NCBI GenBank assembly: GCA_028284745.1
Contig: JANQRC010000015.1
Location: forward strand, 16,113 to 40,112
Direction: 5' to 3'
Origin: Flavobacteriaceae bacterium
GTDB lineage: Bacteria > Bacteroidota > Bacteroidia > Flavobacteriales > Flavobacteriaceae
Length of the DNA: 24,000 nucleotides
A program made the position numbers and the translations under genes. Shown here in pieces: positions 4,049 to 15,479 of the stretch (the stretch's first letter is position 1; every line of letters starts with the position of its first letter). Under the pieces are notes generated by a model, which was not told the origin of the DNA, ran no database searches, and saw nothing but the letters and a program-made list of their open reading frames with translations.

Positions 4049-5599
4049 GTGAATACTGAACTCATTATCAGATCCAGTTCCTCTCAAGTAGATTTTGCCT
4101 TGTTAAAGGATGGAAAATTGATCGAACTGCACAAGGAGCATGAAGATAACAAGTTTACGGTAGGCGATATCTTTTTGGCCAAGATCCGTAAGCCCGTTCC
4201 CGGTCTCAATGCAGCTTTTGTGAATGTGGGTTATGAGAAAGATGCTTTTTTGCACTATCATGACCTGGGCCCAAAGCTGACCTCCCTGTTAAAGTTCATC
4301 AAGCGTGTAAGCGCAGGTAAGTTCAAAGATTACTCTTTGAAGAATTTCCCTTTTGAACCAGAAATAGACAAAGATGGCCGCATTACAGAAGTATTGCACG
4401 CCAATCAGTCTACACTTGTACAGATCGTCAAAGAACCTATCTCTACCAAAGGACCCCGAATCAGCTCGGAGCTCTCTATTGCAGGTAGATACATGGTACT
4501 AGTACCTTTTTCAGACAGAATTTCGGTCTCTCAGAAAATCGCTAGTCGCGAAGAAAAAGACCGACTTAAACGTTTGGTACAAAGCATTAGACCCAAAGGG
4601 TTTGGCGTGATCGTACGTACAGTTGCACAAGGCAAAAAAGTTGCAGAACTGGACAAAGACTTGCAAAATCTGGTATCCCGATGGATATCGATGTGCAAAA
4701 AAATTCCGAGAGCACAGCATCCGTCTAAAGTTCTAAGTGAAATGGGAAGAGCCTCATCTATGGTAAGAGACCTCTTCAACGACCAATTCACAGGGATCCA
4801 TGTAGATGATGAAGCATTGGCTCTAGAGATCAAGGACTATGTACAAGCCATAGCTCCCAAAAAAGAATCTATTGTAACGCATTACAAGTCCAAAGTTCCC
4901 ATCTTTGAAAGGTATGGCATAGAGCGACAGATAAAGACCTCTTTTGGCCGCACCGTAAGCATGAGCAAAGGCGCCTATCTCGTGATAGAGCATACCGAAG
5001 CACTGCATGTCGTTGATGTGAACAGCGGCAACCGATCCAATAAAGCCAAAAATCAAGAGGACACAGCACTGGAAGTAAATTTGATCGCCGCCTCCGAAAT
5101 CGCAAGGCAACTGCGCCTTCGTGATATGGGTGGCATCATCGTGATCGACTTTATAGACATGACCAATGCTGAGAATCGCAGAAAGCTTTTTGACCATCTC
5201 CGCGAGGAAATGAAATCGGATCGTGCTAAGCACAAGATCTTACCGCCTAGTAAGTTTGGGTTGGTGCAGATCACCAGACAACGGGTAAGACCCGAAATGA
5301 ATATACAAACCAGGGAAGAAGACCCTAACAAAGACGGAAAGGTAGAACCACCGATCATTCTAATAGACAAGATCCAAAATGACCTGGAAAAACTATTGAG
5401 CAATGGTTCCGCCAACAAGAAGCTGATGCTAAGCGTGCATCCATTTGTTGGCGCCTACCTGACCAAAGGATTGCATTCCATCCGCTCCAAATGGTTCATG
5501 GAGCATAAAAAATGGGTAAAGATATTGCCCAGAGACGCTTACACCTATCTTGAGTACCATTTCCACGACGGGGAAGGAAATGTGCTCAAAAGTAATTGA
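4049..5599 (+). CDS. rng: Rne/Rng family ribonuclease (RNase G)
   Basis: The 516-aa ORF has a GTG start. It has an S1-like N-terminus and the RNase E/G catalytic core (VVDVNSGN, DMGGIIVIDFIDM, FGLVQITRQR). Confidence 0.9.
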   Translation: MNTELIIRSSSSQVDFALLKDGKLIELHKEHEDNKFTVGDIFLAKIRKPVPGLNAAFVNVGYEKDAFLHYHDLGPKLTSLLKFIKRVSAGKFKDYSLKNFPFEPEIDKDGRITEVLHANQSTLVQIVKEPISTKGPRISSELSIAGRYMVLVPFSDRISVSQKIASREEKDRLKRLVQSIRPKGFGVIVRTVAQGKKVAELDKDLQNLVSRWISMCKKIPRAQHPSKVLSEMGRASSMVRDLFNDQFTGIHVDDEALALEIKDYVQAIAPKKESIVTHYKSKVPIFERYGIERQIKTSFGRTVSMSKGAYLVIEHTEALHVVDVNSGNRSNKAKNQEDTALEVNLIAASEIARQLRLRDMGGIIVIDFIDMTNAENRRKLFDHLREEMKSDRAKHKILPPSKFGLVQITRQRVRPEMNIQTREEDPNKDGKVEPPIILIDKIQNDLEKLLSNGSANKKLMLSVHPFVGAYLTKGLHSIRSKWFMEHKKWVKILPRDAYTYLEYHFHDGEGNVLKSN

Positions 5600-5610
5600 T
5601 AAAGTAAAAG

Positions 5611-5656
5611 CCCACATCAAGTTCCGATAGCTATCGGAATGATGTGGGTTTTTTTA
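5611..5656 (+). terminator. Rho-independent terminator downstream of rng
   Basis: CCCACATCA (5611-5619) pairs with TGATGTGGG (5640-5648). The loop holds an inner perfect palindrome, TTCCGATAGCTATCGGAA, and a T7 run follows. Confidence 0.8.
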
Positions 5657-5683
5657 TGCCCAAAAGTCTACTATATTTACCCA

Positions 5684-6157
5684 ATGCATGCTCGCAAAAC
5701 ATATTCAGTCACAGAAGCCACAAGAAAATTGGAGCAATACTGTGCCTACCAAGACCGTTGCCACAAAGAGGTCGTTGGCAAACTGCAAGCGATGCACATG
5801 ATCCCGCAAGCCATAGACCATATCGTAGCACATCTTATCGAGCATGGTCTCTTGAATGAAGAGCGCTTCGCGCGAAGTTTCGCCAGAGGAAAGTTCAACA
5901 TCAAAAGTTGGGGTAGGAATCGAATTGTTAGAGAGCTGAAACAAAGGAACATTTCCGCTTTCAATATAAAAGCTGCCCTCAAGGAGATTGATGACCAGAC
6001 CTATCATGAAAAGCTAGACCAACTAGCTCGTAAAAAGCTTTCCACGACCAAGGAATCCAACGCATTCAAGAAACGGAAAAAATTGGCGGACTATCTGTTA
6101 TATCGCGGTTGGGAGCCTAACTTGGTCTATGATAAGGTGAAAGAACTAATCCCCTAA
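5684..6157 (+). CDS. recX: Regulatory protein RecX
   Basis: The sequence MHARKTYSVTEATRKLEQYCAYQDRCHKEV... is the typical RecX N-terminus, followed by a three-helix repeat architecture. The start is moved to the ATG at 5684 because the ORF-track start at 5639 lies inside the rng terminator hairpin. Confidence 0.8.
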   Translation: MHARKTYSVTEATRKLEQYCAYQDRCHKEVVGKLQAMHMIPQAIDHIVAHLIEHGLLNEERFARSFARGKFNIKSWGRNRIVRELKQRNISAFNIKAALKEIDDQTYHEKLDQLARKKLSTTKESNAFKKRKKLADYLLYRGWEPNLVYDKVKELIP

Positions 6158-6231
6158 CTCATATAAATCTCAAAGCAACCATTGAAGGATTCGACTGCAC
6201 TCGAAATGACAGTTGAACAGCTTATGATTAA

Positions 6232-7110
6232 TTAGCTTTCCACTTTTGCGGTCATATTCCTGTGGGTCCGGAAAATGGCCTGCTCGTTCTTCCAGTCGAT
6301 CCATTGCTGGCCTTTCACCTTTCGCATTAAATTATCATAATGGCGCATCACGAATACGTTGTACACAGCTTTGCCCAAATTCTTCGGATTTCGTGCGATA
6401 GCACGCAAGCTCATCGAGAATCCAGGTGTGAGATAGCGCATGTAGTGCCAGTAGCCTTCGGGCATGTATAGCACATTGCCATGTTCTAGATCGGCGACAT
6501 AGCCTCGGGCATGTTGAAGCGCTGGCCATTTCTCTAGGTCCGGGTCTGCAAAGTCGATGTCCTCTCGCGTGATCAAAGAATGGGGAACTTTATACAAATG
6601 CTTACTCTGCTCTTGATCGAAGAGGATACACTGCTTTTTTCCTTCAAAATGAAAGTGGAAAATGTTAGCCAGGTCTATATCATAGTGCATGAACGTGTAC
6701 GAATCTGCACCACCAAAAAAGAGCATCGGCAGTCCCTTCATCAATCGCAGGCCAAAATCGGGGTACGAGAAGTCTTTCTGAAGCCCTGGTACTTCCTTCA
6801 ATATATTCCAAAGGAAAATACGATACTTGGTAGGCTCACGCTTCAACAGGTCTATGTACTCGTCCATCTTCATCTTGGCATGCGGCTCGTTGAAGCCTTC
6901 ATCATGCTTAACCGGCCTGTCGTCATATAACGGCACCTCTTTATCGCCTGCCACTTCTTTCATGTACGCCAAACTCCACTTCGAGTATGCAGGCCAATCA
7001 TCAACAAAGTGCTCTATTACCACGGGTTTTTGTGGTTTGAAATAATCTCGGATAAATTCCTGCTTGGTCAAAGTATTGACCCTGGGAATCTCTTTCAAGT
7101 TCAATTTCAA
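6232..7110 (-). CDS. Cupin-like (JmjC/Cupin_8) domain protein, a putative Fe(II)/2-oxoglutarate oxygenase
   Basis: The 292-aa protein has a candidate HxD...H facial triad (FMHYDID ... EGYWHYMRY) in a double-stranded beta-helix context. Only TTG starts are available at the 5' end. Confidence 0.6.
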   Translation of the reverse strand: MKLNLKEIPRVNTLTKQEFIRDYFKPQKPVVIEHFVDDWPAYSKWSLAYMKEVAGDKEVPLYDDRPVKHDEGFNEPHAKMKMDEYIDLLKREPTKYRIFLWNILKEVPGLQKDFSYPDFGLRLMKGLPMLFFGGADSYTFMHYDIDLANIFHFHFEGKKQCILFDQEQSKHLYKVPHSLITREDIDFADPDLEKWPALQHARGYVADLEHGNVLYMPEGYWHYMRYLTPGFSMSLRAIARNPKNLGKAVYNVFVMRHYDNLMRKVKGQQWIDWKNEQAIFRTHRNMTAKVES

Positions 7111-7131
7111 GTATCAACTAATTTAGCCGCG

Positions 7132-7139
7132 CAAAGTTA
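7132..7139 (-). promoter_or_regulatory. -7 box (TAACTTTG on the minus strand) for the cupin gene
   Basis: The plus strand reads CAAAGTTA, which is TAnnTTTG on the coding strand, 22 nt upstream of the TTG start at 7110. Confidence 0.35.
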
Positions 7140-7176
7140 ATAAATGGTTTCCTAAACGTTTCTTAAAGCAAAACGT

Positions 7177-8271
7177 CTATTTTACCATTTTAGCCTTTTG
7201 TTTGGCCAATTCGTTACGTTCGATAGTGTGATCGGGTCTTGACCAGCGTGGTTTTTCGCCTAGCTCTTGGTATCGAGAATCGGCAGCTTCGACTGTCTTA
7301 GGTTGGTCTTTCTTGGTGAAGGGCTTCATAGGATTCAGGCCTAGCATCTTGAACATTTCCATATCCTCATTCACGTCAGGATTGGGCGTGGTCAATAACT
7401 TGTCTCCTGCAAAGATCGAGTTGGCACCTGCGAAGAAACACATAGCTTGCCCCTCGCGGCTCATCTGAGTTCTACCAGCAGAAAGGCGCACTTGAGTTTG
7501 CGGCATGACAATACGCGTTGTAGCCACCATGCGAATCATGTCCCAGATCTCCACAGGCTGCTCATCTTCCATCGGAGTGCCTTCTACGGCAACCAATGCG
7601 TTGATCGGCACAGATTCGGGTTGCGGGTCCAAGGTTGAAAGTGCCACCAACATTCCGGCGCGGTCTTCAGCGGCTTCTCCCATGCCTATGATGCCGCCAC
7701 TACATACGGTTACATTGGTCTTTCGCACATTATCAATGGTTTGTAAGCGATCTTCGAACCCACGTGTTGAAATGACTTCTTTATAATATTCTTCGGAAGT
7801 GTCTAAGTTGTGATTGTAGGCGTACAAACCCGCCTCAGCAAGACGCTTGGCTTGATTTTCGGTAACCATGCCCAATGTACAGCACACCTCCATGTCTAAT
7901 TTGTTGATGGCGCGCACCATCTCCAGCACTTGGTCAAACTCAGGGCCATCTTTCACATTTCGCCAGGCAGCACCCATACAAACCCGACTACTTCCTGAGG
8001 CTTTCGCACGAAGCGCCTGTGCCTTCACTTGCTGGACAGACATGAGGTCGTTGCCTTCGATATCGGTATGATAGCGTGCCGCTTGAGGGCAATACCCACA
8101 ATCTTCAGGACAGCCTCCTGTCTTGATCGAAAGCAATGTGGAGACTTGTACTGTGTTGGGATCGTGGTACCACCGATGGATAGTAGCTGCTTCGTAGAGC
8201 AGTTCCATCATAGGCTTATTGTATATCTCAAGGATCTCTTCTTTGGTCCAGTTGTGTCGGATGTTGGTCAT
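7177..8271 (-). CDS. bioB: Biotin synthase
   Basis: It has the radical-SAM motif CPEDCGYCPQ and BioB-specific 2Fe-2S ligand regions (CCTLG, VCSGGIIGMGE, RLSAGR). Confidence 0.95.
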   Translation of the reverse strand: MTNIRHNWTKEEILEIYNKPMMELLYEAATIHRWYHDPNTVQVSTLLSIKTGGCPEDCGYCPQAARYHTDIEGNDLMSVQQVKAQALRAKASGSSRVCMGAAWRNVKDGPEFDQVLEMVRAINKLDMEVCCTLGMVTENQAKRLAEAGLYAYNHNLDTSEEYYKEVISTRGFEDRLQTIDNVRKTNVTVCSGGIIGMGEAAEDRAGMLVALSTLDPQPESVPINALVAVEGTPMEDEQPVEIWDMIRMVATTRIVMPQTQVRLSAGRTQMSREGQAMCFFAGANSIFAGDKLLTTPNPDVNEDMEMFKMLGLNPMKPFTKKDQPKTVEAADSRYQELGEKPRWSRPDHTIERNELAKQKAKMVK

Positions 8272-8291
8272 TCGGGTATCGTTTGTTTATC

Positions 8292-8313
8292 AAAAATAGG
8301 AAATCCTATTTTT
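8292..8313. promoter_or_regulatory. 22-nt AT-rich palindrome AAAAATAGG-AAAT-CCTATTTTT overlapping the bioB -7 box (plus-strand CAAAAATA at 8291-8298)
   Basis: The inverted repeat is a perfect 9+9 bp and lies 20-40 nt upstream of the bioB ATG. It could be an operator, or a hairpin between the KAS gene and bioB. Confidence 0.4.
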
Positions 8314-8357
8314 AGGATCCCGATAGAAGTATTCTTTTGTGAACGATTTTGTAAACA

Positions 8358-9548
8358 CTATGGTAGCCTAAGCAGCACACTCACCGCATTTCCGCCAAAG
8401 CCTACTGCATTCACCAAGATGCGCTGTATCTTTTTTGGAAGATCTTTATGTTGAATGTAAGGAACTTCGATGAATTCTTGATGCTGTAGCATTAGTATTG
8501 CCATTTCTACGCTCAACATCCCTGAAGCACCGAAGGTATGCCCTACTTTCCATTTGTTAGTGGTCAAAGCCGGCATTACGCCATCAAAGATTCTTTTGAT
8601 GGCATTGTATTCACTCTGATCACCTTTGATAGTGCCTGGAGCATGCATCACGATCACATCTACTTTTTCAGGTGAGATACCGCCTAATGCCATCTTCATT
8701 GAACGTTGGAAGCATTCTGCATCTGTAGAGATCGACGCAGGATGCTGAAGCGGTTCGGTAGCATAGCCAATGCCTTCAACGATCGCTAGTGCGTTTTCGT
8801 TCTCACCTCTACCTAAACATGCTACCGAAGCTCCTTCGCCCAATATCATGGTGTTACCCTGTTTTTCTAGATTCAGTGCTTGGCAAGGATACAAAACATC
8901 CTTCGACTGCGCTCGGGATGACAAAGAAGCATAGATCTTCATCGCGCGCATCTGCGCGATGGTGAAAGGCGTCAACGGCGCCTCGCTGCCACCAACTAAG
9001 AACATGTCTGCCATTCCCGATTGCAACCATGCAATGGCATTCAGCAGCGCATGCAAGGCCGTAGAGCATGTGATCGAGTGTGAAATGGTCGGTCCTTGCG
9101 TTTGCAGATCGTGCGCTACCCACGAGGAGATATTGCCCAACGTGGTTGTAGGAGATGTCAAGGTCTGCACTTTTCTCCGTTGCAAAAATTCCGTGTGATG
9201 GCTCTCGAACAAGGTCGTAGCACCACGAGAGGACCCGATGTTTACACCTAAAACACCTTTTTGCTGCCAATTTGTATTCTTTAAGGCAGCTCGACTAGCA
9301 TGAATGGCCAATAATACCGTGTCGTCTAAAGCTTGATACTTCCGGTCACGCTGTCGGAGTGCTTCAACCTCTTGTCTGGCCTCTTGAGAAAGTGGCGCTA
9401 CGAATGTAGGGCTCCCGTCCAGTTCCTTTTCAATGAAACAATGACTTGGACTCAAATAGTGTTGCCAGATCTCTTCGGAAGAAATCCCTATGGCTGAAAT
9501 AGAACCGATGGATGTAATGGAAATTGGTTGCCTCAAAAGAAGTGTCAT
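8358..9548 (-). CDS. Beta-ketoacyl-ACP synthase I/II-like (FabF/FabB-like) protein encoded in the biotin cluster
   Basis: It has a thiolase-fold KAS with an apparent Cys-His-His triad: ITCSTALHAL, VIVMHAPGT and KVGHTFGASG. The C-terminal GFGGNAVSVLL is also KAS-like. The start is set at ATG 9548; the ORF-track start at 9557 is a TTG. Confidence 0.75.
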   Translation of the reverse strand: MTLLLRQPISITSIGSISAIGISSEEIWQHYLSPSHCFIEKELDGSPTFVAPLSQEARQEVEALRQRDRKYQALDDTVLLAIHASRAALKNTNWQQKGVLGVNIGSSRGATTLFESHHTEFLQRRKVQTLTSPTTTLGNISSWVAHDLQTQGPTISHSITCSTALHALLNAIAWLQSGMADMFLVGGSEAPLTPFTIAQMRAMKIYASLSSRAQSKDVLYPCQALNLEKQGNTMILGEGASVACLGRGENENALAIVEGIGYATEPLQHPASISTDAECFQRSMKMALGGISPEKVDVIVMHAPGTIKGDQSEYNAIKRIFDGVMPALTTNKWKVGHTFGASGMLSVEMAILMLQHQEFIEVPYIQHKDLPKKIQRILVNAVGFGGNAVSVLLRLP

Positions 9549-9579
9549 TTCATGCAAAAATAATTCTTATTTTCATGCC

Positions 9580-10032
9580 ATGATCGAACAAGACCCAGAT
9601 TACAAGGAAGCATTTGACAACGAACTGATCGAGCGCCCTAGTTGGTGGAAACGCAACTGGAAGTGGGTAGTGCCTGTTGGTGGTTGCTTAACGTTGACCA
9701 TCTTGTTCTTTATGATGGTTGGCGGGCTTATTTTTGGGATCACTTCTGCCATGGAAGAATCGCAACCTTACGAATATGCCCTTGAGAAGATCAACCAAGA
9801 CAAGAAGATGATCGAATTGTTAGGTTCGCCGATAGAGAAGGATGGTATGGTACAAGGGAACTTCAACTGGACCAATGGAAAGAAAGGGGCTGATATGCGC
9901 ATTCCAATTGCCGGTCCAAAAGGTGCCGCCATATTATATGTGAAAGCCCGAGGTGAAGGAGATGAATGGGTCTATGATGAGATCCGTGTAGAGATGAATG
10001 AGGGTCAAAGCTCGGATCTCTTGATTGAATAA
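9580..10032 (+). CDS. Small single-pass membrane protein, Coa1-like (cytochrome oxidase assembly factor 1 family)
   Basis: The sequence MIEQDPDYKEAF...RPSWWKRNWKWVVPVGGCLTLTILFFMMVGGLIF has one TM helix followed by a soluble domain. I recall this architecture being annotated as Coa1 family in flavobacteria. The start is moved to the ATG at 9580, because the upstream part of the track ORF is antisense to the KAS gene. Confidence 0.5.
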   Translation: MIEQDPDYKEAFDNELIERPSWWKRNWKWVVPVGGCLTLTILFFMMVGGLIFGITSAMEESQPYEYALEKINQDKKMIELLGSPIEKDGMVQGNFNWTNGKKGADMRIPIAGPKGAAILYVKARGEGDEWVYDEIRVEMNEGQSSDLLIE

Positions 10033-10035
10033 AAG

Positions 10036-10070
10036 CGCCTACCTCTATCCTATCCTCGAGGAGAGGGGAC
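10036..10070. repeat. G-rich/C-rich hairpin repeat (copy 1), a probable bidirectional terminator between the Coa1-like gene and bioA
   Basis: The minus strand reads CCCCTCTCCTCGAGGATAGGATAGAGG. It has the core palindrome TCCTCGAGGA (10053-10062) with an extended stem at 10049-10066. It shares the CCCTCTCCT...GG.T.AGG pattern with the copy at 12037-12078. Confidence 0.5.
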
Positions 10071-10071
10071 T

Positions 10072-11337
10072 TTAAAGTATTTCTAGCGACGCTTCGATCA
10101 CCTCATACACCTGCTGAAGCTGTTGCCCAGTGATCACATAGGGTGGCAAAATATAGATCGTATTCCCCAGCGGACGCAAGAACACGCCGTTTTCCATGTA
10201 AAAGTTGAACAGCTTATCGCGTAAATTGCCGTAGCGTTGCATCTCTACATTCAAATCTATCGCGTAGATCACACCCAACTGCCGTGTCGATGCGACCTTT
10301 GGATGTTGCCTGATATGCTTGTCAAACCGTTGGTGAGAAGCAGTGACTCTATGAATGTTGTGCTTCATCTCTTCAGACTGCAACAGCTCGATCCCTGCCA
10401 AAGCTGCCGCACAAGCTAGTGGGTTTGCTGAATAGGTATGCCCATGGAAGAATCCCTTTGACAATTCATCTGAATAGAATGCATCGAATATCTTTAGCGA
10501 GCAACTAGTGATCGCCATCGGCAGCAATCCTGCTGTCAACGCCTTAGATAAGCACATGATGTCGGGTTTGTGCTCAAGGTGGTCTGAGGCGAAATATTCC
10601 CCAGTCTTACCGAAGCCCGTCATCACTTCGTCGGCCACAGTGACCACATCGTGTTCGTGGCAAAATGCGATCAATTCGTCAAGACCCTCTGCATCGTGCA
10701 TCTTCATCGCCGCTGCGCCTTGAACCAGTGGCTCGTAAACGAAACCTGCCACATTGCCTTTAGCAATCAAATTGTTGAGCTGAGAAAGTACTCCTTCATT
10801 GTTATTGCCATCCGGCGCCGGGATCCGTTCTACCTGAATGAGGAGATCTTCGAACGGACCATTGTATATCGAAAGCCCAGATACCGACATCGCCCCGAAG
10901 GTATCTCCATGGAAACCTTCCTCAAAAGCAATTAACACGTTTCGTTTTTCACCCTTATTGAAATGATACTGCAAGGCCATCTTCACACCTACTTCTACTG
11001 CTGTGGAGCCATTGTCTGAAAAGAATAATTTCTGCTGATTATCAGGTAGGATCTCCATCAATGCTTCTGACATCCTGATGGCAGGTTCGTGTGTAAAGCC
11101 ACTGAAGACCACTTGGTCCAGTTGTTGCATCTGACTGGCGACTCGATCGGTGATGTATGGATTACAGTGCCCATACATGGCTACATACCACGAAGCGATC
11201 CCGTCGATATATTCATTGCCTTGATCATCGAAAAGCAAAGCGCCTATTGCCTTTGCTACGGGCAACATGTCACCATGTGTCTTATGCTGTGTCAGTGGGT
11301 GCCAGAGGTGTTTTTTATCGCGCTCTCGTAGGTTCAT
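10072..11337 (-). CDS. bioA: Adenosylmethionine-8-amino-7-oxononanoate aminotransferase
   Basis: It is a class III PLP aminotransferase with the BioA N-terminus (RDKKHLWHPLTQH), ADEVMTGFGKTG and CLSKALTAG (the PLP lysine). The start is ambiguous among in-frame ATGs at 11376, 11352, 11343 and 11337. I favour 11337 (MNLRERDKKHLWHP). Confidence 0.9.
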   Translation of the reverse strand: MNLRERDKKHLWHPLTQHKTHGDMLPVAKAIGALLFDDQGNEYIDGIASWYVAMYGHCNPYITDRVASQMQQLDQVVFSGFTHEPAIRMSEALMEILPDNQQKLFFSDNGSTAVEVGVKMALQYHFNKGEKRNVLIAFEEGFHGDTFGAMSVSGLSIYNGPFEDLLIQVERIPAPDGNNNEGVLSQLNNLIAKGNVAGFVYEPLVQGAAAMKMHDAEGLDELIAFCHEHDVVTVADEVMTGFGKTGEYFASDHLEHKPDIMCLSKALTAGLLPMAITSCSLKIFDAFYSDELSKGFFHGHTYSANPLACAAALAGIELLQSEEMKHNIHRVTASHQRFDKHIRQHPKVASTRQLGVIYAIDLNVEMQRYGNLRDKLFNFYMENGVFLRPLGNTIYILPPYVITGQQLQQVYEVIEASLEIL

Positions 11338-11390
11338 GATCATTTTTCTCATGCTGAGTTTATCTCGGCATCTCATTAATAATTTTTAAT

Positions 11391-11441
11391 GTTTCAAACC
11401 CTGGGCCCTCATTCCCTGACGCTATAGAAAAAGTTTGAAAC
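11391..11441. repeat. 9-bp inverted repeat GTTTCAAAC / GTTTGAAAC spanning the bioD stop codon and the bioD-bioA spacer
   Basis: The arms are at 11391-11399 and 11433-11441, with a 33-nt loop. The loop contains GTCAGGGAATGAGGG (minus strand), which is related to the GTCAGGGTGAGGG of the 12037-12078 repeat. Confidence 0.35.
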
Positions 11442-12033
11442 GTCCTGCATACTCCTTGATCACATTTTGATCGAAGTAAGGTTCTTCACCGATTCTTCCT
11501 AAAATTGGTATGCCCGCCATTTTCTCAATTATGCTTTCTGTGGAAGGATGTTCATCTCCGCTGAAAATGATGCCTTTGACATTCAGCTTCCGTTGTTTCA
11601 GCGCTTCGACAGTGAGCAATGTATGATTGATGCTTCCTAGATAATGACGCGAGACCACCACTACTTCATAGTCTGGCTTGATCGTCTCCAATACTGTTTC
11701 TGTATCATTAAGTGGAACGAGCAATCCGCCTGCACCTTCGATGACCAGGTGATTTCGGGTCTTAGGTTCTTTGATCCCCTGCAATTGGATCGCGATTCCG
11801 TCGATCTCAGCAGCCCCATGCGGACTCATCGGCGTATGGAGCGCATAGCTATTGGGATGGATGACTGATTTCGAATTGGAAATCAATCTGCTAACCGTAT
11901 GCGAATCTGAATTATCAAGGGCGCCCGCTTGCACGGGCTTCCAGTAGTCGGCCTGCAAGGCTTCCACTAGAATTGCTGCAGCAACCGTCTTTCCTACGTC
12001 GGTCGAAATGCCTGTGACAAAGAGTTTTTTCAT
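11422..12033 (-). CDS. bioD: Dethiobiotin synthase
   Basis: MKKLFVTGISTDVGKTV carries the P-loop, and the protein has a BioD-length body. The start is set at ATG 12033. The track's 14-codon extension (MVPSPWGEGQGEGT) is a translated intergenic repeat. Confidence 0.9.
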   Translation of the reverse strand: MKKLFVTGISTDVGKTVAAAILVEALQADYWKPVQAGALDNSDSHTVSRLISNSKSVIHPNSYALHTPMSPHGAAEIDGIAIQLQGIKEPKTRNHLVIEGAGGLLVPLNDTETVLETIKPDYEVVVVSRHYLGSINHTLLTVEALKQRKLNVKGIIFSGDEHPSTESIIEKMAGIPILGRIGEEPYFDQNVIKEYAGRFKLFL

Positions 12034-12036
12034 AGT

Positions 12037-12078
12037 ACCCTCACCCTGACCCTCACCCCAAGGAGAGGGAACCAAGTG
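12037..12078. repeat. G-rich/C-rich hairpin repeat (copy 2) in the bioF-bioD spacer
   Basis: On the plus strand, CCCTCACCCTGA is followed by a second CCCTCACCC, giving a 12-nt-period direct repeat, and then GGAGAGGG. A hairpin at 12050-12069 has 7 bp with one mismatch and a 4-nt loop. Confidence 0.5.
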
Positions 12079-12086
12079 CTTTTTTG

Positions 12087-13232
12087 TTATTGGTTTACAA
12101 AAGTAGCAAGCAAATGCAAGACCTCCTCGATTTCTTCTTCCGAATTATAACTGTGCAAGCAAAAACGGAGTCGCTCTTGTCCAGCGGGAACAGTAGGTGA
12201 TAGAATAGGCCTAACATCAAACCCCTTTTGTTGTAATTGTTGGGAAACTTCTTTGACCCTATCATTCCCTGAAATAATGGCACATTGAATGGCCGAGCAA
12301 CTTGCTATGAATTGCTTGTGCAAGTCAAGTTCCTTTACCTTTTGAAGAAAGTGCTCAATGTTTTCTCGAAGCTGCTTGGATGTTTCAGAAGCTGTATAGA
12401 TGCTATGTGCCGTTATGATCGTGGCCACCGAATGTGGAGGCAAGCCCGTGGTGTAGATAAAGCTTCGAGCAAAGTTGACCAGATAGCTTTTCAGCGTATT
12501 TGACCCCAAAATGGCCGCTCCATGACAACCGAATGCTTTCCCGAATGTGATGATTCGTGCAAAGATGTTAGATGTCAGCTGCAACCGAGGAATCATGCCA
12601 TTTCCAAAGACACCAACTGCATGTGCCTCATCAACTACAAGATGGAATCTATTTTCATCGCAATATTTCGATAATACGTCGAGGTCAGGAGAATCGCCAT
12701 CCATTGAGAAGACAGATTCAGTGACCAAATACACTTCCGCGCCTCGACTGCGCTCGGCATGACAAGCTTTTACCTTACTTTTTAGGTCATCTAGATCATT
12801 GTGCCTAAACTTATAGCCTTTGGCCAGACTCATCGTGATGCCATCACGAACGGAAGCGTGGATATACTCATCATAAAGGATCACATCGCCACGTTGTGGG
12901 ACCGATGAGAAGAAACCAACGTTCGCATCATAACCACTATTGAAGATCAACGCTGCCTCTGAATCGTAGTCTTCACAAAGTTTAGCCTCTACCTCATCAT
13001 ACAATAAATGATTTCCTGACAGCAAACGTGAGCCGGTAGCTCCATTCATTTCAACTGCGTTATCGACAAGCAACCGATATGTTCTTTCATAGAGTTGCTC
13101 GTCTTTGGCAAATCCCAGATAGTCATTAGAGGAAAAATCCACTAGATCCTTGGGCACTGGCAGTCTCCGTAACGCATTGTTCTTGTTTCGTTCTTCAATC
13201 CTTTTCCGAAGCTTTTCAGGGAATTGCTGCAT
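12087..13232 (-). CDS. bioF: 8-amino-7-oxononanoate synthase
   Basis: It is a class II PLP aminotransferase with SNDYLG, VTESVFSMDGD, VDEAHAVG, TFGKAFG (the PLP lysine) and PTVPAGQERLRFCLH. Confidence 0.9.
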   Translation of the reverse strand: MQQFPEKLRKRIEERNKNNALRRLPVPKDLVDFSSNDYLGFAKDEQLYERTYRLLVDNAVEMNGATGSRLLSGNHLLYDEVEAKLCEDYDSEAALIFNSGYDANVGFFSSVPQRGDVILYDEYIHASVRDGITMSLAKGYKFRHNDLDDLKSKVKACHAERSRGAEVYLVTESVFSMDGDSPDLDVLSKYCDENRFHLVVDEAHAVGVFGNGMIPRLQLTSNIFARIITFGKAFGCHGAAILGSNTLKSYLVNFARSFIYTTGLPPHSVATIITAHSIYTASETSKQLRENIEHFLQKVKELDLHKQFIASCSAIQCAIISGNDRVKEVSQQLQQKGFDVRPILSPTVPAGQERLRFCLHSYNSEEEIEEVLHLLATFVNQ

Positions 13233-13241
13233 CTACCGAAA

Positions 13242-13266
13242 TTAACAAAACCTTTCTTCTTGTTAA
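13242..13266. promoter_or_regulatory. Inverted repeat TTAACAA-N11-TTGTTAA immediately upstream of bioF, a candidate operator
   Basis: The perfect 7-bp arms are at 13242-13248 and 13260-13266, 10-34 nt upstream of the bioF ATG. They lie downstream of a near-consensus -7 box (plus-strand CAAATTAA at 13277-13284). Confidence 0.35.
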
Positions 13267-13436
13267 AGAGCGGCGGCAAATTAAATTTCTGTGATTCTGC
13301 AGCATCTTTGCAACATATGCTTGCCTTGGTCGATCATCGTAATAACTTCTACGCTTCTTTGAGCGCCTAAAAACTTATGCCATTCCATGCGCTAGCAATT
13401 ATATCCATTTCGATTTCAAATGCTTTTTGGAATGGC

Positions 13437-13444
13437 TATATTTG
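13437..13444 (+). promoter_or_regulatory. -7 box TATATTTG for the TerB-like gene
   Basis: This is an exact TAnnTTTG match, 23 nt upstream of the ATG at 13467. It is directly abutted by the right arm of a 9-bp inverted repeat (13379-13387 / 13428-13436). Confidence 0.45.
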
Positions 13445-13466
13445 TGCCACCAAAAAATGAACATAA

Positions 13467-13901
13467 ATGTCATCGATCAAAGAATTATACGATAGCGGTT
13501 TTCAAAAAAGGAACAAAGATCATTTTGCCGCTATTGTCAGAGTAGCCATGAGTGATGGGGTCATCAAAGAAGGAGAGCGATCCTTCCTAAGACGTTTGGC
13601 TCATCGCCTTCACATCTCGGACCATGAATACAACACCATCTTAGACAATTATTCGTCTTACCCGATCAATCCGCCAGTTACATACGAGCGCCGTCTAGAG
13701 CGTCTGTACGACCTCACAAGGATGGTGTTTGCAGATGATGAGATCGGCGAAAGGCAGCAACCGTTGCTTGAGCGTCTAAGTGTCGGGTTGGGCTTCACGC
13801 CAAACAATGTGAAATACGTGGTTGCCAAAGCACTAGAATTGGTAAGCTTTGGTGTCGACTTTGAAGAGTTCGACGAAGAGATCAGAAATATGAATAGGTA
13901 G
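13467..13901 (+). CDS. TerB-like (tellurite resistance TerB / DjlA N-terminal domain family) protein
   Basis: The 144-aa helical protein has two repeats of the pattern VAMSDG.I...E..FL..LA..L.IS and MVFADDEI...Q..LL..L...LGF, which is typical of the TerB fold. Confidence 0.5.
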   Translation: MSSIKELYDSGFQKRNKDHFAAIVRVAMSDGVIKEGERSFLRRLAHRLHISDHEYNTILDNYSSYPINPPVTYERRLERLYDLTRMVFADDEIGERQQPLLERLSVGLGFTPNNVKYVVAKALELVSFGVDFEEFDEEIRNMNR

Positions 13902-13918
13902 CAAAACCTTGACAGTCA

Positions 13919-13951
13919 AAAAAGGCCAAGTCTAGAACTTGGCCTTTTTTT
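13919..13951. terminator. Bidirectional rho-independent terminator between the TerB-like gene and the kinase gene
   Basis: The hairpin is GGCCAAGT-CTAGA-ACTTGGCC (13924-13944). It is flanked by an A-run on the left and a T7 run on the right. Confidence 0.8.
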
Positions 13952-15479
13952 ATGACCTAAGATTGCTGTACACCGCATTTAACAAGGTCTCTTCGTCAAA
14001 TGGCTTGATCAGTGTCTCGGTTATTCCGGCACGTTTGTACCTCGTCAGGTCCTTAGATTTATGATAGGCAGTGACCGCAATTATGGGCACATTTCTAGTA
14101 TTGTTGAATCCTAGCCTTCTGATCTGCTGCGTCAGCTCGTCTCCCTGTATTCCGTTCAATTTGATGTCCATAAGGATCACATCATAGATGTTATGCTTCA
14201 GGTCTTCTAACACTCCTTCTGCGCCCTCGAAGATCTCAACGTAAAAATCTCCGGTACTCACCAATATCTTTAGCATGACCATCTGAGTCATCTCAGAATC
14301 TTCGATCAACAATGCTTTGAACTTCTCTTTCCTCCTTGCAACTGCCGGCCTCTCTGCTCGCTCTTGTTGCTTCTTCTTTTCCTTTTGTACTGAAGGAATC
14401 AATGGGAAGTTGAAATTCATATTGAAGCTGAACTTGCTTCCTTTGCCATGAGTGCTTTCCAACTTAATGTCAGACTCCATCAGATGAAGGATCTGTTTTA
14501 CTATGGATAGCCCAAGCCCAACACCTTTAGGGTCTCCGCTGCTCTGCAGTTGCGAAAAGCTCTCGAATATCTTGGACTGGTCCTCTTCCTTGATCCCCCT
14601 TCCTGTATCAGCAACGCTGAAATGTATGTTTGCTCTGTTGCCTCGGCGATAGTTCTGCTCTACGTGCAAGGTGACCTTTCCTTTTTTGGTGTACTTCAGT
14701 GCGTTGTTCAGCAAGTTTACTATTATCTGTTTCAGCCTAACGGGGTCACCTTCTACTTGCTCAGGGAATTTTTTGTCGACCTCCATGACGAATTTCAACC
14801 CTTTCGCCCTTGCCTTGGCCGAGTATGTGCGCTCGATGTCTTTTAAAACGCCCCTAAGGTCAAAAAGCCTAGGTTCTATCGTAAGTTTTCCTGCCTCGAT
14901 CTTAGAGATGTCCATGATATCTTCTAACATGTTCTTAAGGTCTACGGTAGAAGATTGTATGACGCCCGCATAGTCCAACTGGTCATTGGTCAGCTCGGTA
15001 TGTTGAAGCATTTGCGAGAACGTGAGTATGCTGGTCAACGGATTGCGGATCTCATGGCTGAAGTTTGCTATGAATCTGTTCTTGAACGCTTCCTTTTCTT
15101 TCAAGAATTTATTCTGAAGGTCCAGAAACTGCTTGGCGATCACAGATTCGTTTCGCGTCTGGGTCACTTTTTGCAGTTCGGCATAGTGTTCGGTGAAATT
15201 GGTGATGATGATCAGCAGACCATCAGCCATGCTCTTTATCTCGATATCGCAGATAAACTCGTCTTGCTTGCCTAGATGAACGCAGTTAAGTTGCAACTCT
15301 TCCTTTTCAAGGAAAATTGGGGACAAGCTCTCAAAAAAAGCGTGCTCTTTTTGAATGAAGCTACCATTGCGCAGTTTAAATAGGGCATCATCAGATTCAA
15401 TGATCTTCCCGTTCGTGTCTACTAGCACAAATTGTCTACGAACTTTGTAAAAGTCCGCCTTTATGTCGTCTAATGTCAT
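13950..15479 (-). CDS. Cytoplasmic hybrid sensor histidine kinase/response regulator (small N-terminal PAS-like domain, coiled coil, HisKA, HATPase_c, REC)
   Basis: It has the H-box FSHEIRNPL, N-box LLNNALKYT, G1 DTGRGI and G2 GVGLGLSI. The C-terminal receiver has the acidic pair (IEDSE), the phospho-acceptor (ILMDIKL), T (AVTAY) and K (IKPF). I see no TM segments. Confidence 0.9.
   Translation of the reverse strand: MTLDDIKADFYKVRRQFVLVDTNGKIIESDDALFKLRNGSFIQKEHAFFESLSPIFLEKEELQLNCVHLGKQDEFICDIEIKSMADGLLIIITNFTEHYAELQKVTQTRNESVIAKQFLDLQNKFLKEKEAFKNRFIANFSHEIRNPLTSILTFSQMLQHTELTNDQLDYAGVIQSSTVDLKNMLEDIMDISKIEAGKLTIEPRLFDLRGVLKDIERTYSAKARAKGLKFVMEVDKKFPEQVEGDPVRLKQIIVNLLNNALKYTKKGKVTLHVEQNYRRGNRANIHFSVADTGRGIKEEDQSKIFESFSQLQSSGDPKGVGLGLSIVKQILHLMESDIKLESTHGKGSKFSFNMNFNFPLIPSVQKEKKKQQERAERPAVARRKEKFKALLIEDSEMTQMVMLKILVSTGDFYVEIFEGAEGVLEDLKHNIYDVILMDIKLNGIQGDELTQQIRRLGFNNTRNVPIIAVTAYHKSKDLTRYKRAGITETLIKPFDEETLLNAVYSNLRS

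Follow-up and report, generated by a model that had tools for sequence, protein, structure and literature searches.

Background

What supplies the pimeloyl thioester for biotin synthesis in a bacterium whose biotin (bio) gene cluster holds bioF, bioD, bioA and bioB and none of the known genes for the pimelate arm? The question is raised by a stretch of 24,000 nucleotides from a Flavobacteriaceae bacterium (assembly GCA_028284745.1, contig JANQRC010000015.1, positions 16,113 to 40,112 of the forward strand; hereafter the window), in which a gene for a ketoacyl synthase (KAS) of the KAS I/II type lies immediately upstream of bioB. A first-pass annotation, made from the letters of the window, had proposed this KAS as a dedicated condensing enzyme for pimelate, distinct from the KAS III-type BioZ. 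Our analysis supports the proposal: no rival pathway was found in the genome, the gene is linked to bio genes in relatives, it does not occur together with other routes, and it carries a conserved arginine, Arg108, where FabF has an isoleucine. We put at roughly 0.7 the probability that the KAS is a condensing enzyme dedicated to an omega-carboxy-acyl primer, yielding 3-oxopimeloyl-acyl carrier protein (ACP), which would be the job of BioZ done on the fold of FabF.

Synthesis of the pimelate arm varies by lineage and has been solved case by case, as BioC/BioH, BioI/BioW, BioZ and, in 2025, BioE. The BioC/BioH(G,K,J,V), BioI/BioW and BioE/BioL systems fill the same slot as that proposed for the KAS, the supply of a pimeloyl thioester to BioF, but they are unrelated proteins with unrelated chemistry: a methyl-ester disguise, oxidative cleavage by a cytochrome P450 or a diiron enzyme, or ligation of pimelate. 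Missing from the known routes that the first-pass annotation listed were BioE/BioL, a recently described fourth route (PMC12704756, PMC12915131), and the FabF-like protein DVU2563 of Desulfovibrio (PMC10102598). Flavobacteriia have been ranked among the main marine biotin producers on bioFADB alone (PMC9561691).

A condensing enzyme gene in the biotin cluster

On the minus strand of the window the gene order is bioF-bioD-bioA-KAS-bioB, followed by a Cupin_8 gene that is described further below. The condensing enzyme and the bio genes are:

12087-13232, minus strand: bioF, 8-amino-7-oxononanoate synthase, which consumes the pimeloyl thioester; best NCBIfam match TIGR00858 at 318 bits, below the 426-bit cut-off
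11422-12075, minus strand: bioD, dethiobiotin synthase; TIGR00347 at 126 bits (cut-off 83)
10072-11376, minus strand: bioA, adenosylmethionine-8-amino-7-oxononanoate transaminase; TIGR00508 at 539 bits (cut-off 405)
8358-9548, minus strand: KAS I/II-type condensing enzyme; N- and C-terminal Pfam domains and a triad aligned to that of FabF
7177-8271, minus strand: bioB, biotin synthase; TIGR00433 at 402 bits (cut-off 225); 86 bp downstream of the KAS gene

The four bio genes that had been named in the window are therefore matched by NCBIfam models, with the best hit of bioF remaining below its cut-off, and the reported lack of bioC, bioH, bioG, bioW and bioI in the window holds and extends to the whole genome (see below). 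The true start of bioD is probably internal, near MKKLFVTG.

The KAS open reading frame (ORF) begins with ATG, has an alternative TTG at 9557, and encodes a product of 396 residues, as had been reported. A Pfam search finds both the N-terminal (PF00109, E 6e-21) and the C-terminal (PF02801, E 5e-16) ketoacyl synthase domains, and the best NCBIfam model is the fabF equivalog TIGR03150, at 137 bits against a cut-off of 493.75. With both domains present and a score so far below the cut-off for fabF, the product is, as judged from its sequence, a KAS I/II-type enzyme and no ordinary FabF, in agreement with the divergence noted earlier. The genome contains exactly one further KAS I/II gene, which encodes a typical FabF (contig C47).

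The KAS of the biotin operon belongs to a discrete family, whose members score 176-880 bits to the query while the FabF of the same genome scores only 56 bits. The family comprises 435 clusters (50% identity, E <= 1e-30), and its members carry the RefSeq label 'beta-ketoacyl synthase N-terminal-like domain-containing protein'.

Catalytic residues, fold and an invariant arginine

An apparent Cys-His-His triad had been recognised in the motifs ITCST, MHAPGT and VGHTFG. All three motifs are present in the KAS, and HMMER comparison with solved FabF structures together with alignment to E. coli FabF (reference sequence from NC_000913) places Cys161, His302, His337 and Lys332 of the KAS opposite Cys163, His303, His340 and Lys335 of FabF, so that the triad stands. 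The GFGG segment at residues 383-386 aligns with the Phe400 gating loop, Gly383-Phe384-Gly385 corresponding to Gly399-Phe400-Gly401 of FabF. The codons of the residues discussed here are:

9225-9227, minus strand: Arg108
9066-9068, minus strand: Cys161
8643-8645, minus strand: His302
8553-8555, minus strand: Lys332
8538-8540, minus strand: His337

We aligned 139 representatives of the family, obtained by clustering at 50% identity, and none of them departs from the Cys-His-His-Lys set or the GFGG loop (139/139). An AlphaFold2 model of the KAS, built from an input alignment of 45 sequences, has a predicted local distance difference test score (pLDDT) of 95 and a predicted template modelling score (pTM) of 0.95, and the top Foldseek matches of this model are FabF structures, with template modelling (TM) scores of 0.84-0.88 at about 21% identity. 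Identity to housekeeping FabF is about 21-27%. The KAS thus has in common with housekeeping FabF, both that of E. coli and its own genome's on contig C47, the fold, the Cys163/His303/His340/Lys335 set and the Phe400 loop.

The two differ in residues expected to line the acyl pocket. In the numbering of mature E. coli FabF, which we use for all signature positions, every one of the 139 representatives has an arginine in place of Ile108. The other changes kept in at least 90% of the representatives are G107S, L111T, V134S, I138T, N140G, A160S and A162T, together with S194L, L197F, G201Q, T305P, S306G and A345S. Besides I108R, this places polar residues at seven conserved positions (107, 111, 134, 138, 160, 162 and 201). 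Set directly against E. coli FabF, the KAS of the window shows I108R, L111T, V134S, I138T, A160S, A162T, G201Q, F202M and T305P/S306G, Phe202 being a methionine in this protein. The hydrophobic pocket with an Ile108-Phe202 back gate that marks FabF proper is not found in it.

The position of the arginine is informative, since in FabF Ile108 and Phe202 form a 'back gate' at about C7-C8 of the bound acyl chain, and the I108F variant accepts only short chains (PMC9006962). For comparison, the E. coli route passes through a glutaryl-ACP methyl ester with a length of about C7 (PMC9006962). An arginine at the C7-C8 gate would face the carboxylate of a C5 diacid, and Arg108 together with the polar substitutions would make the lipid pocket short, closed and cationic. 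From the alignment, and from the places that such residues should take in a structure of the FabF type, we infer a pocket suited to a diacyl group of five carbons (C5) whose second carboxylate is free.

Occurrence in relatives

To follow the gene through the family we took 201 genera of Flavobacteriaceae, with one genome per genus, and recorded the KAS and bioB in each:

KAS present, bioB present: 117 genera
KAS present, bioB absent: 1 genus (an assembly of 610 contigs)
KAS absent, bioB present: 7 genera
KAS absent, bioB absent: 76 genera

The KAS is thus missing from 83 of the 201 genera, and is found in 117 of the 124 bioB-positive genera and in only one of the 77 that are bioB-negative. It is also physically linked: of the 117 genera, 65 have bioB directly downstream of the KAS on the same strand and another 43 have it on that strand at a distance of up to 12 kb, while in the remaining nine the two genes are on different contigs (5) or otherwise arranged (4).

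The seven genera that have bioB and lack the KAS are instructive. One, G005, encodes a BioC over the cut-off within a bioFADB cluster, and is the sole genus with BioC among the 201. Its bioB is divergent (29% identity) and lies in a cluster of the bioA-bioF-bioC-bioD type (locus L048, about 5049-10475), which looks like a horizontally acquired BioC-type set. A second, G195, is the sole genus of the sample with a BioE-like gene, which stands next to bioF and encodes a ferritin-like protein of 211 residues with the expected E/ExxH ligand pattern. At this locus (L051) the BioE-like gene, at 12148-12783 on the minus strand, is fused into bioF-bioD-bioB-bioA, and beside it, at 12961-14466 on the plus strand, lies a gene for a divergent MocR-type (BioL-like) regulator. 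Four further genera (G126, G182, G031 and G120; loci L049, L050, L053 and L052, respectively) have no BioA over the cut-off; they match the type of the 'bioB-only' dethiobiotin users that have been described (PMC9561691) and are candidates for dethiobiotin salvage. The last, G102, is represented by a fragmentary assembly. Because every bioB-positive genome without the KAS has BioC, has BioE, has no BioA or is fragmentary, the KAS goes with the de novo pathway (bioFDA) and not just with bioB. In no genus does it occur together with BioC or BioE, and in 117 of the about 120 genera with bioB and the de novo pathway the KAS is present and none of the known early genes is.

Gene order was compared in 80 named Flavobacteriaceae loci with 10-kb flanks, a set that includes Flavobacterium, Zobellia, Maribacter, Cellulophaga, Flagellimonas, Seonamhaeicola and Aquimarina. 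The order bioF-bioD-bioA-KAS on one strand is found in 76 of these loci, and bioA is directly upstream of the KAS in 78. When the ORFs of the 80 loci were clustered, no conserved neighbour emerged except bioF/D/A/B, RecX, Cupin_8 and syntenic housekeeping genes; there was no ACP, FabG or FabZ.

Among 401 genomes sampled from the phylum, the KAS is concentrated in the family of the source bacterium (20/28). Four distant homologues, at 34-45% identity, belong to three further families of the class and to one further class, and all adjoin bioA or bioF. Arg108 is kept in all four and the full signature set in three of the four, G300 and G543 each deviating at one or two positions other than Arg108. 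The linkage to bio genes, which the first-pass annotation had asked to be profiled across Bacteroidota, accordingly holds in about 117 genera of this family as well as in four distant lineages of the phylum.

This distribution bears on the view that the KAS is a condensing enzyme of fatty acid or lipid synthesis whose only tie to the bio genes is co-transcription, serving for instance to tune lipid synthesis under biotin limitation. Such a role would fit an intact FabF-like catalytic apparatus, and acetyl-CoA carboxylase provides a metabolic link between biotin and the synthesis of fatty acids. However, fatty acids are still made in the bioB-negative genera, 76 of 77 of which have no KAS, and neither the genome with BioC nor that with BioE has one; unlike housekeeping FabF, the KAS occurs only where bioFDA is present. 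The exchange of Ile108 at the back gate for arginine and the polar residues at seven more conserved positions also speak against a lipid substrate. We regard a lipid-synthetic role as very improbable, and return to the KAS as an enzyme of the pimelate arm.

A few observations from the search stand apart from these counts. Three genomes have decayed-looking KAS copies: one split into two matched pieces (G106:C1:2657903-2659243), one with an internal TAA (G166:C1:2378904-2380055) and one, partial and additional to another copy, with a stop (G175:C21:31353-31847). A contig titled 'MAG: Bifidobacterium breve' (L105, CALPIE020000009.1) carries a flavobacterial-type KAS with 62% identity to the query and is probably mis-binned.

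Other routes to pimelate in the source genome

The source genome (2.82 Mb in 73 contigs, 97.8% complete) was searched in full for the known routes. As the first-pass annotation had suggested checking, bioC, bioH and bioG were sought outside the window, and none was found over its cut-off: the best match to BioC reaches 59.9 bits (cut-off 185), the best to BioH 63.5 bits (cut-off 207), and BioG has no match in the genome. Nor did the whole-genome search return a match for BioW (PF03744) or, for BioI, any P450 (PF00067). For BioE, we used the BioE-like gene of G195 (locus L051) as the query; nothing in the source genome appears at E <= 1, the best tblastn match having an E of 4.2 where the positive control, G195 itself, gives 2e-138. 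A scan of all ORFs of the genome for the ExxH-pair pattern produced a single ferritin-like candidate, which was rejected as MiaE-like; it is a protein of 194 residues encoded on the minus strand of contig C64, in an ORF that starts about 29.8 kb from the 3' end of the contig, and it matches MiaE weakly (97 bits, cut-off 320).

Three KAS III (FabH-like) paralogues are encoded, none of them near bio genes. One lies below the fabH cut-off, at 197 bits, and no BioZ-specific NCBIfam model matched any of the three. A glutaryl-CoA dehydrogenase (CoA, coenzyme A) is clearly encoded, with 417-431 bits against solved structures of this enzyme.

These results also bear on the proposal that pimelate comes from elsewhere and that the KAS is accessory or unrelated, with a KAS III paralogue serving as BioZ, with the Cupin_8 protein cleaving an acyl chain in the manner of BioI or BioE, or with pimelate being scavenged. 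The FabH-like gene under its cut-off would be one starting point for it, and the putative cupin-type oxygenase encoded directly downstream of bioB another, oxidative cleavage having precedents in BioI and BioE (PMC12704756). Against this, no KAS III gene is near the bio genes and there is no BioW to activate pimelate. The Cupin_8 gene is present in only 36 of the 80 related loci and is retained with bioB where bioA and the KAS are missing (G126, G182), and so does not track de novo synthesis. Such a scheme would, moreover, leave unexplained why the KAS accompanies bioFDA almost without exception, why it is not found together with BioC or BioE in the genera sampled, and why its arginine is invariant. 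We consider an origin of pimelate elsewhere improbable. The KAS is the only candidate for the pimelate arm in the source genome and in most of its biotin-making relatives.

Proposed reaction

We propose the following sequence of events. Cys161 would be the acyl acceptor, His302, His337 and Lys332 would decarboxylate malonyl-ACP, and Phe384 would be the gate. An omega-carboxy-acyl thioester, most likely glutaryl in the form of glutaryl-CoA or glutaryl-ACP, would acylate Cys161 while Arg108 would hold its free carboxylate; a decarboxylative Claisen condensation between this acyl group and malonyl-ACP would then give 3-oxopimeloyl-ACP, which the housekeeping FabG, FabZ and FabI would reduce to pimeloyl-ACP for BioF. 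The KAS would in this way stand in for BioC and BioH, as the methyl-ester disguise would not be needed, and equally for BioZ, BioI/BioW or BioE. That the reductive enzymes of the type II system for making fatty acids (FAS II) can handle 3-oxopimeloyl-ACP with a free carboxyl group follows from the finding that E. coli mutants in bioC, in bioH or in both are complemented by BioZ on its own (PMC7645780). With a glutaryl-CoA dehydrogenase encoded in the genome, glutaryl-CoA is plausible as a native primer.

Several considerations weigh against this reading. The usual primers of FabF-type enzymes are acyl-ACPs and not acyl-CoAs, and no dedicated source of glutaryl-ACP is evident in the genome. One of the three KAS III paralogues may have BioZ-like activity. 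The genome is a draft of 73 contigs, for which an absence means 'not found', and the genomes of the co-occurrence table are related, so that its counts are not independent events. The placement of the Arg108 side chain relative to Cys161 is deduced from sequence alignment and from the literature on FabF, and our literature search found no experiment on any member of the KAS family; what the enzyme takes as substrates, what it makes and what Arg108 does are accordingly given here as proposals.

The same role could also be filled by iterative chemistry that starts from malonyl-ACP without methyl esters and uses the housekeeping ACP and reductive enzymes: an undecarboxylated malonyl-ACP primer would give 3-oxoglutaryl-ACP, this would be reduced to glutaryl-ACP, and a second condensation would yield 3-oxopimeloyl-ACP. 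A single FabF-derived enzyme would then be self-sufficient up to pimeloyl-ACP, with both malonyl- and glutaryl-ACP primers held by Arg108 and both rounds run with the ordinary ACP, FabG, FabZ and FabI. This scheme respects the preference of KAS I/II enzymes for acyl-ACP primers, lets a single added gene provide the whole of a de novo route with no need for lysine catabolism, and accords with the KAS being the sole conserved extra gene at the loci. The eight polar positions (107, 108, 111, 134, 138, 160, 162 and 201) could admit the shorter malonyl group if they line the pocket, and the Desulfovibrio (DvH) genetics back a methyl-ester-free route with a FabF-like enzyme (PMC10102598). Malonyl is, however, prone to decarboxylation on the enzyme, an arginine at the C7-C8 gate suits a C5 primer better than a C3 primer, and the DvH system depends on a separate ACP and on FabG-like and FabZ-like proteins of its own, none of which is encoded at the flavobacterial loci. 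We therefore hold the self-sufficient version as a tentative second option. If it is true, this enzyme would be the main start of biotin synthesis in Flavobacteriia, a start that makes the methyl-ester disguise unnecessary and is independent of lysine catabolism.

Comparison with BioZ and DVU2563

In function, the closest system to the condensing enzyme proposed here is BioZ, the KAS III/FabH-like enzyme of alpha-proteobacteria (PMC7645780, PMC8024396, PMC12625853). Both are single condensing enzymes encoded in a bio cluster, in genomes without BioC/BioH. The reaction of BioZ, in which an omega-carboxy primer and malonyl-ACP give 3-oxopimeloyl-ACP that is finished by FAS II, is the one we propose for the KAS, and both have polar residues positioned for a free carboxylate, predicted in the case of the KAS from its sequence. 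The differences lie in the protein. BioZ has a Cys-His-Asn triad, whereas the KAS has Cys-His-His with a lysine and a GFGG gate, and lies outside the BioZ family. BioZ grips the carboxyl group of glutaryl through Ser84 and Ser287 (PMC12625853); in the KAS the candidate partner of the carboxylate is, instead of two serines, an arginine at the back gate of FabF. The FabF-type scaffold of the KAS suggests an ACP-bound primer, unlike the CoA-bound primer of BioZ. BioZ is biochemically characterised and alpha-proteobacterial, while the KAS is known from its sequence and belongs to Bacteroidota.

The closest precedent among KAS I/II enzymes is DVU2563, a FabF-like protein from the extended bio cluster of Desulfovibrio, which we compared with the KAS by its published description. 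It is needed for biotin-free growth, as measured by transposon fitness (RB-TnSeq, random barcode transposon sequencing; PMC10102598), and a methyl-ester-free scheme for pimeloyl-ACP has been put forward for this cluster (PMC10102598, which cites Rodionov 2004 for the cluster). Common to the two systems are a KAS I/II-type gene amid bio genes, the absence of BioC/BioH and a proposed synthesis of pimeloyl-ACP without methyl esters, and the authors of that work speculated on less hydrophobic active sites (PMC10102598). The Desulfovibrio cluster, however, adds an ACP of its own along with one FabG-like and two FabZ-like genes and needs a nitroreductase-like protein, where the flavobacterial operon adds the KAS only, and the hosts of such clusters are anaerobes of other phyla.

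A full-text literature search retrieved the work on BioZ, BioE and Desulfovibrio and no characterisation of the Bacteroidota KAS. What the present data suggest is that pimelate is reached through a condensing enzyme with the scaffold of FabF in place of that of FabH and without the accessory genes of Desulfovibrio, a route of which that search found no description. If this is true, it would be a further route of the condensing-enzyme kind, built on FabF, and would explain how the pocket of the KAS tolerates a free omega-carboxylate; the RefSeq annotation of the family could be corrected, and the gene would offer a single-gene part for the engineering of biotin and pimelate pathways.

Neighbouring genes and intergenic regions

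Two further genes lie within or at the end of the cluster:

6232-7110, minus strand: Cupin_8/JmjC-like gene, directly downstream of bioB; Pfam PF13621, E 5e-31
9490/9580-10032, plus strand: Coa1-like single-pass membrane protein, between bioA and the KAS; Pfam PF08695, E 4e-14

A Cupin_8 enzyme of oxidative cleavage was tried as a candidate and rejected, as the gene stays with bioB in loci without bioA and the KAS and is missing from more than half of the KAS loci. It may be a factor associated with bioB or a mere syntenic neighbour, and a role in the pathway is unlikely. The Coa1-like gene is an interruption of the cluster that lies outside the pathway, being found at the junction of bioA and the KAS in only 13 of the 80 related loci. 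Its ATG is about 31 nt from that of the KAS, on the opposite strand, and with the two starts so close the promoter of the KAS would lie within the Coa1-like gene, or the KAS would be expressed by read-through from bioA.

A scan of positions 6000-13600 for promoters and terminators gave counts no higher than those in shuffled sequence, with a consensus that does not cover the promoters of Bacteroidota. In the spacer between the KAS and bioB, at 8300-8321 on the minus strand, there is a hairpin with a 9-bp stem followed by a T-rich tail, a kind of site that is no commoner in the region than in shuffled sequence. At the other end of the cluster, an ORF of 144 residues with a TerB domain (13467-13901, plus strand) is divergent from bioF.

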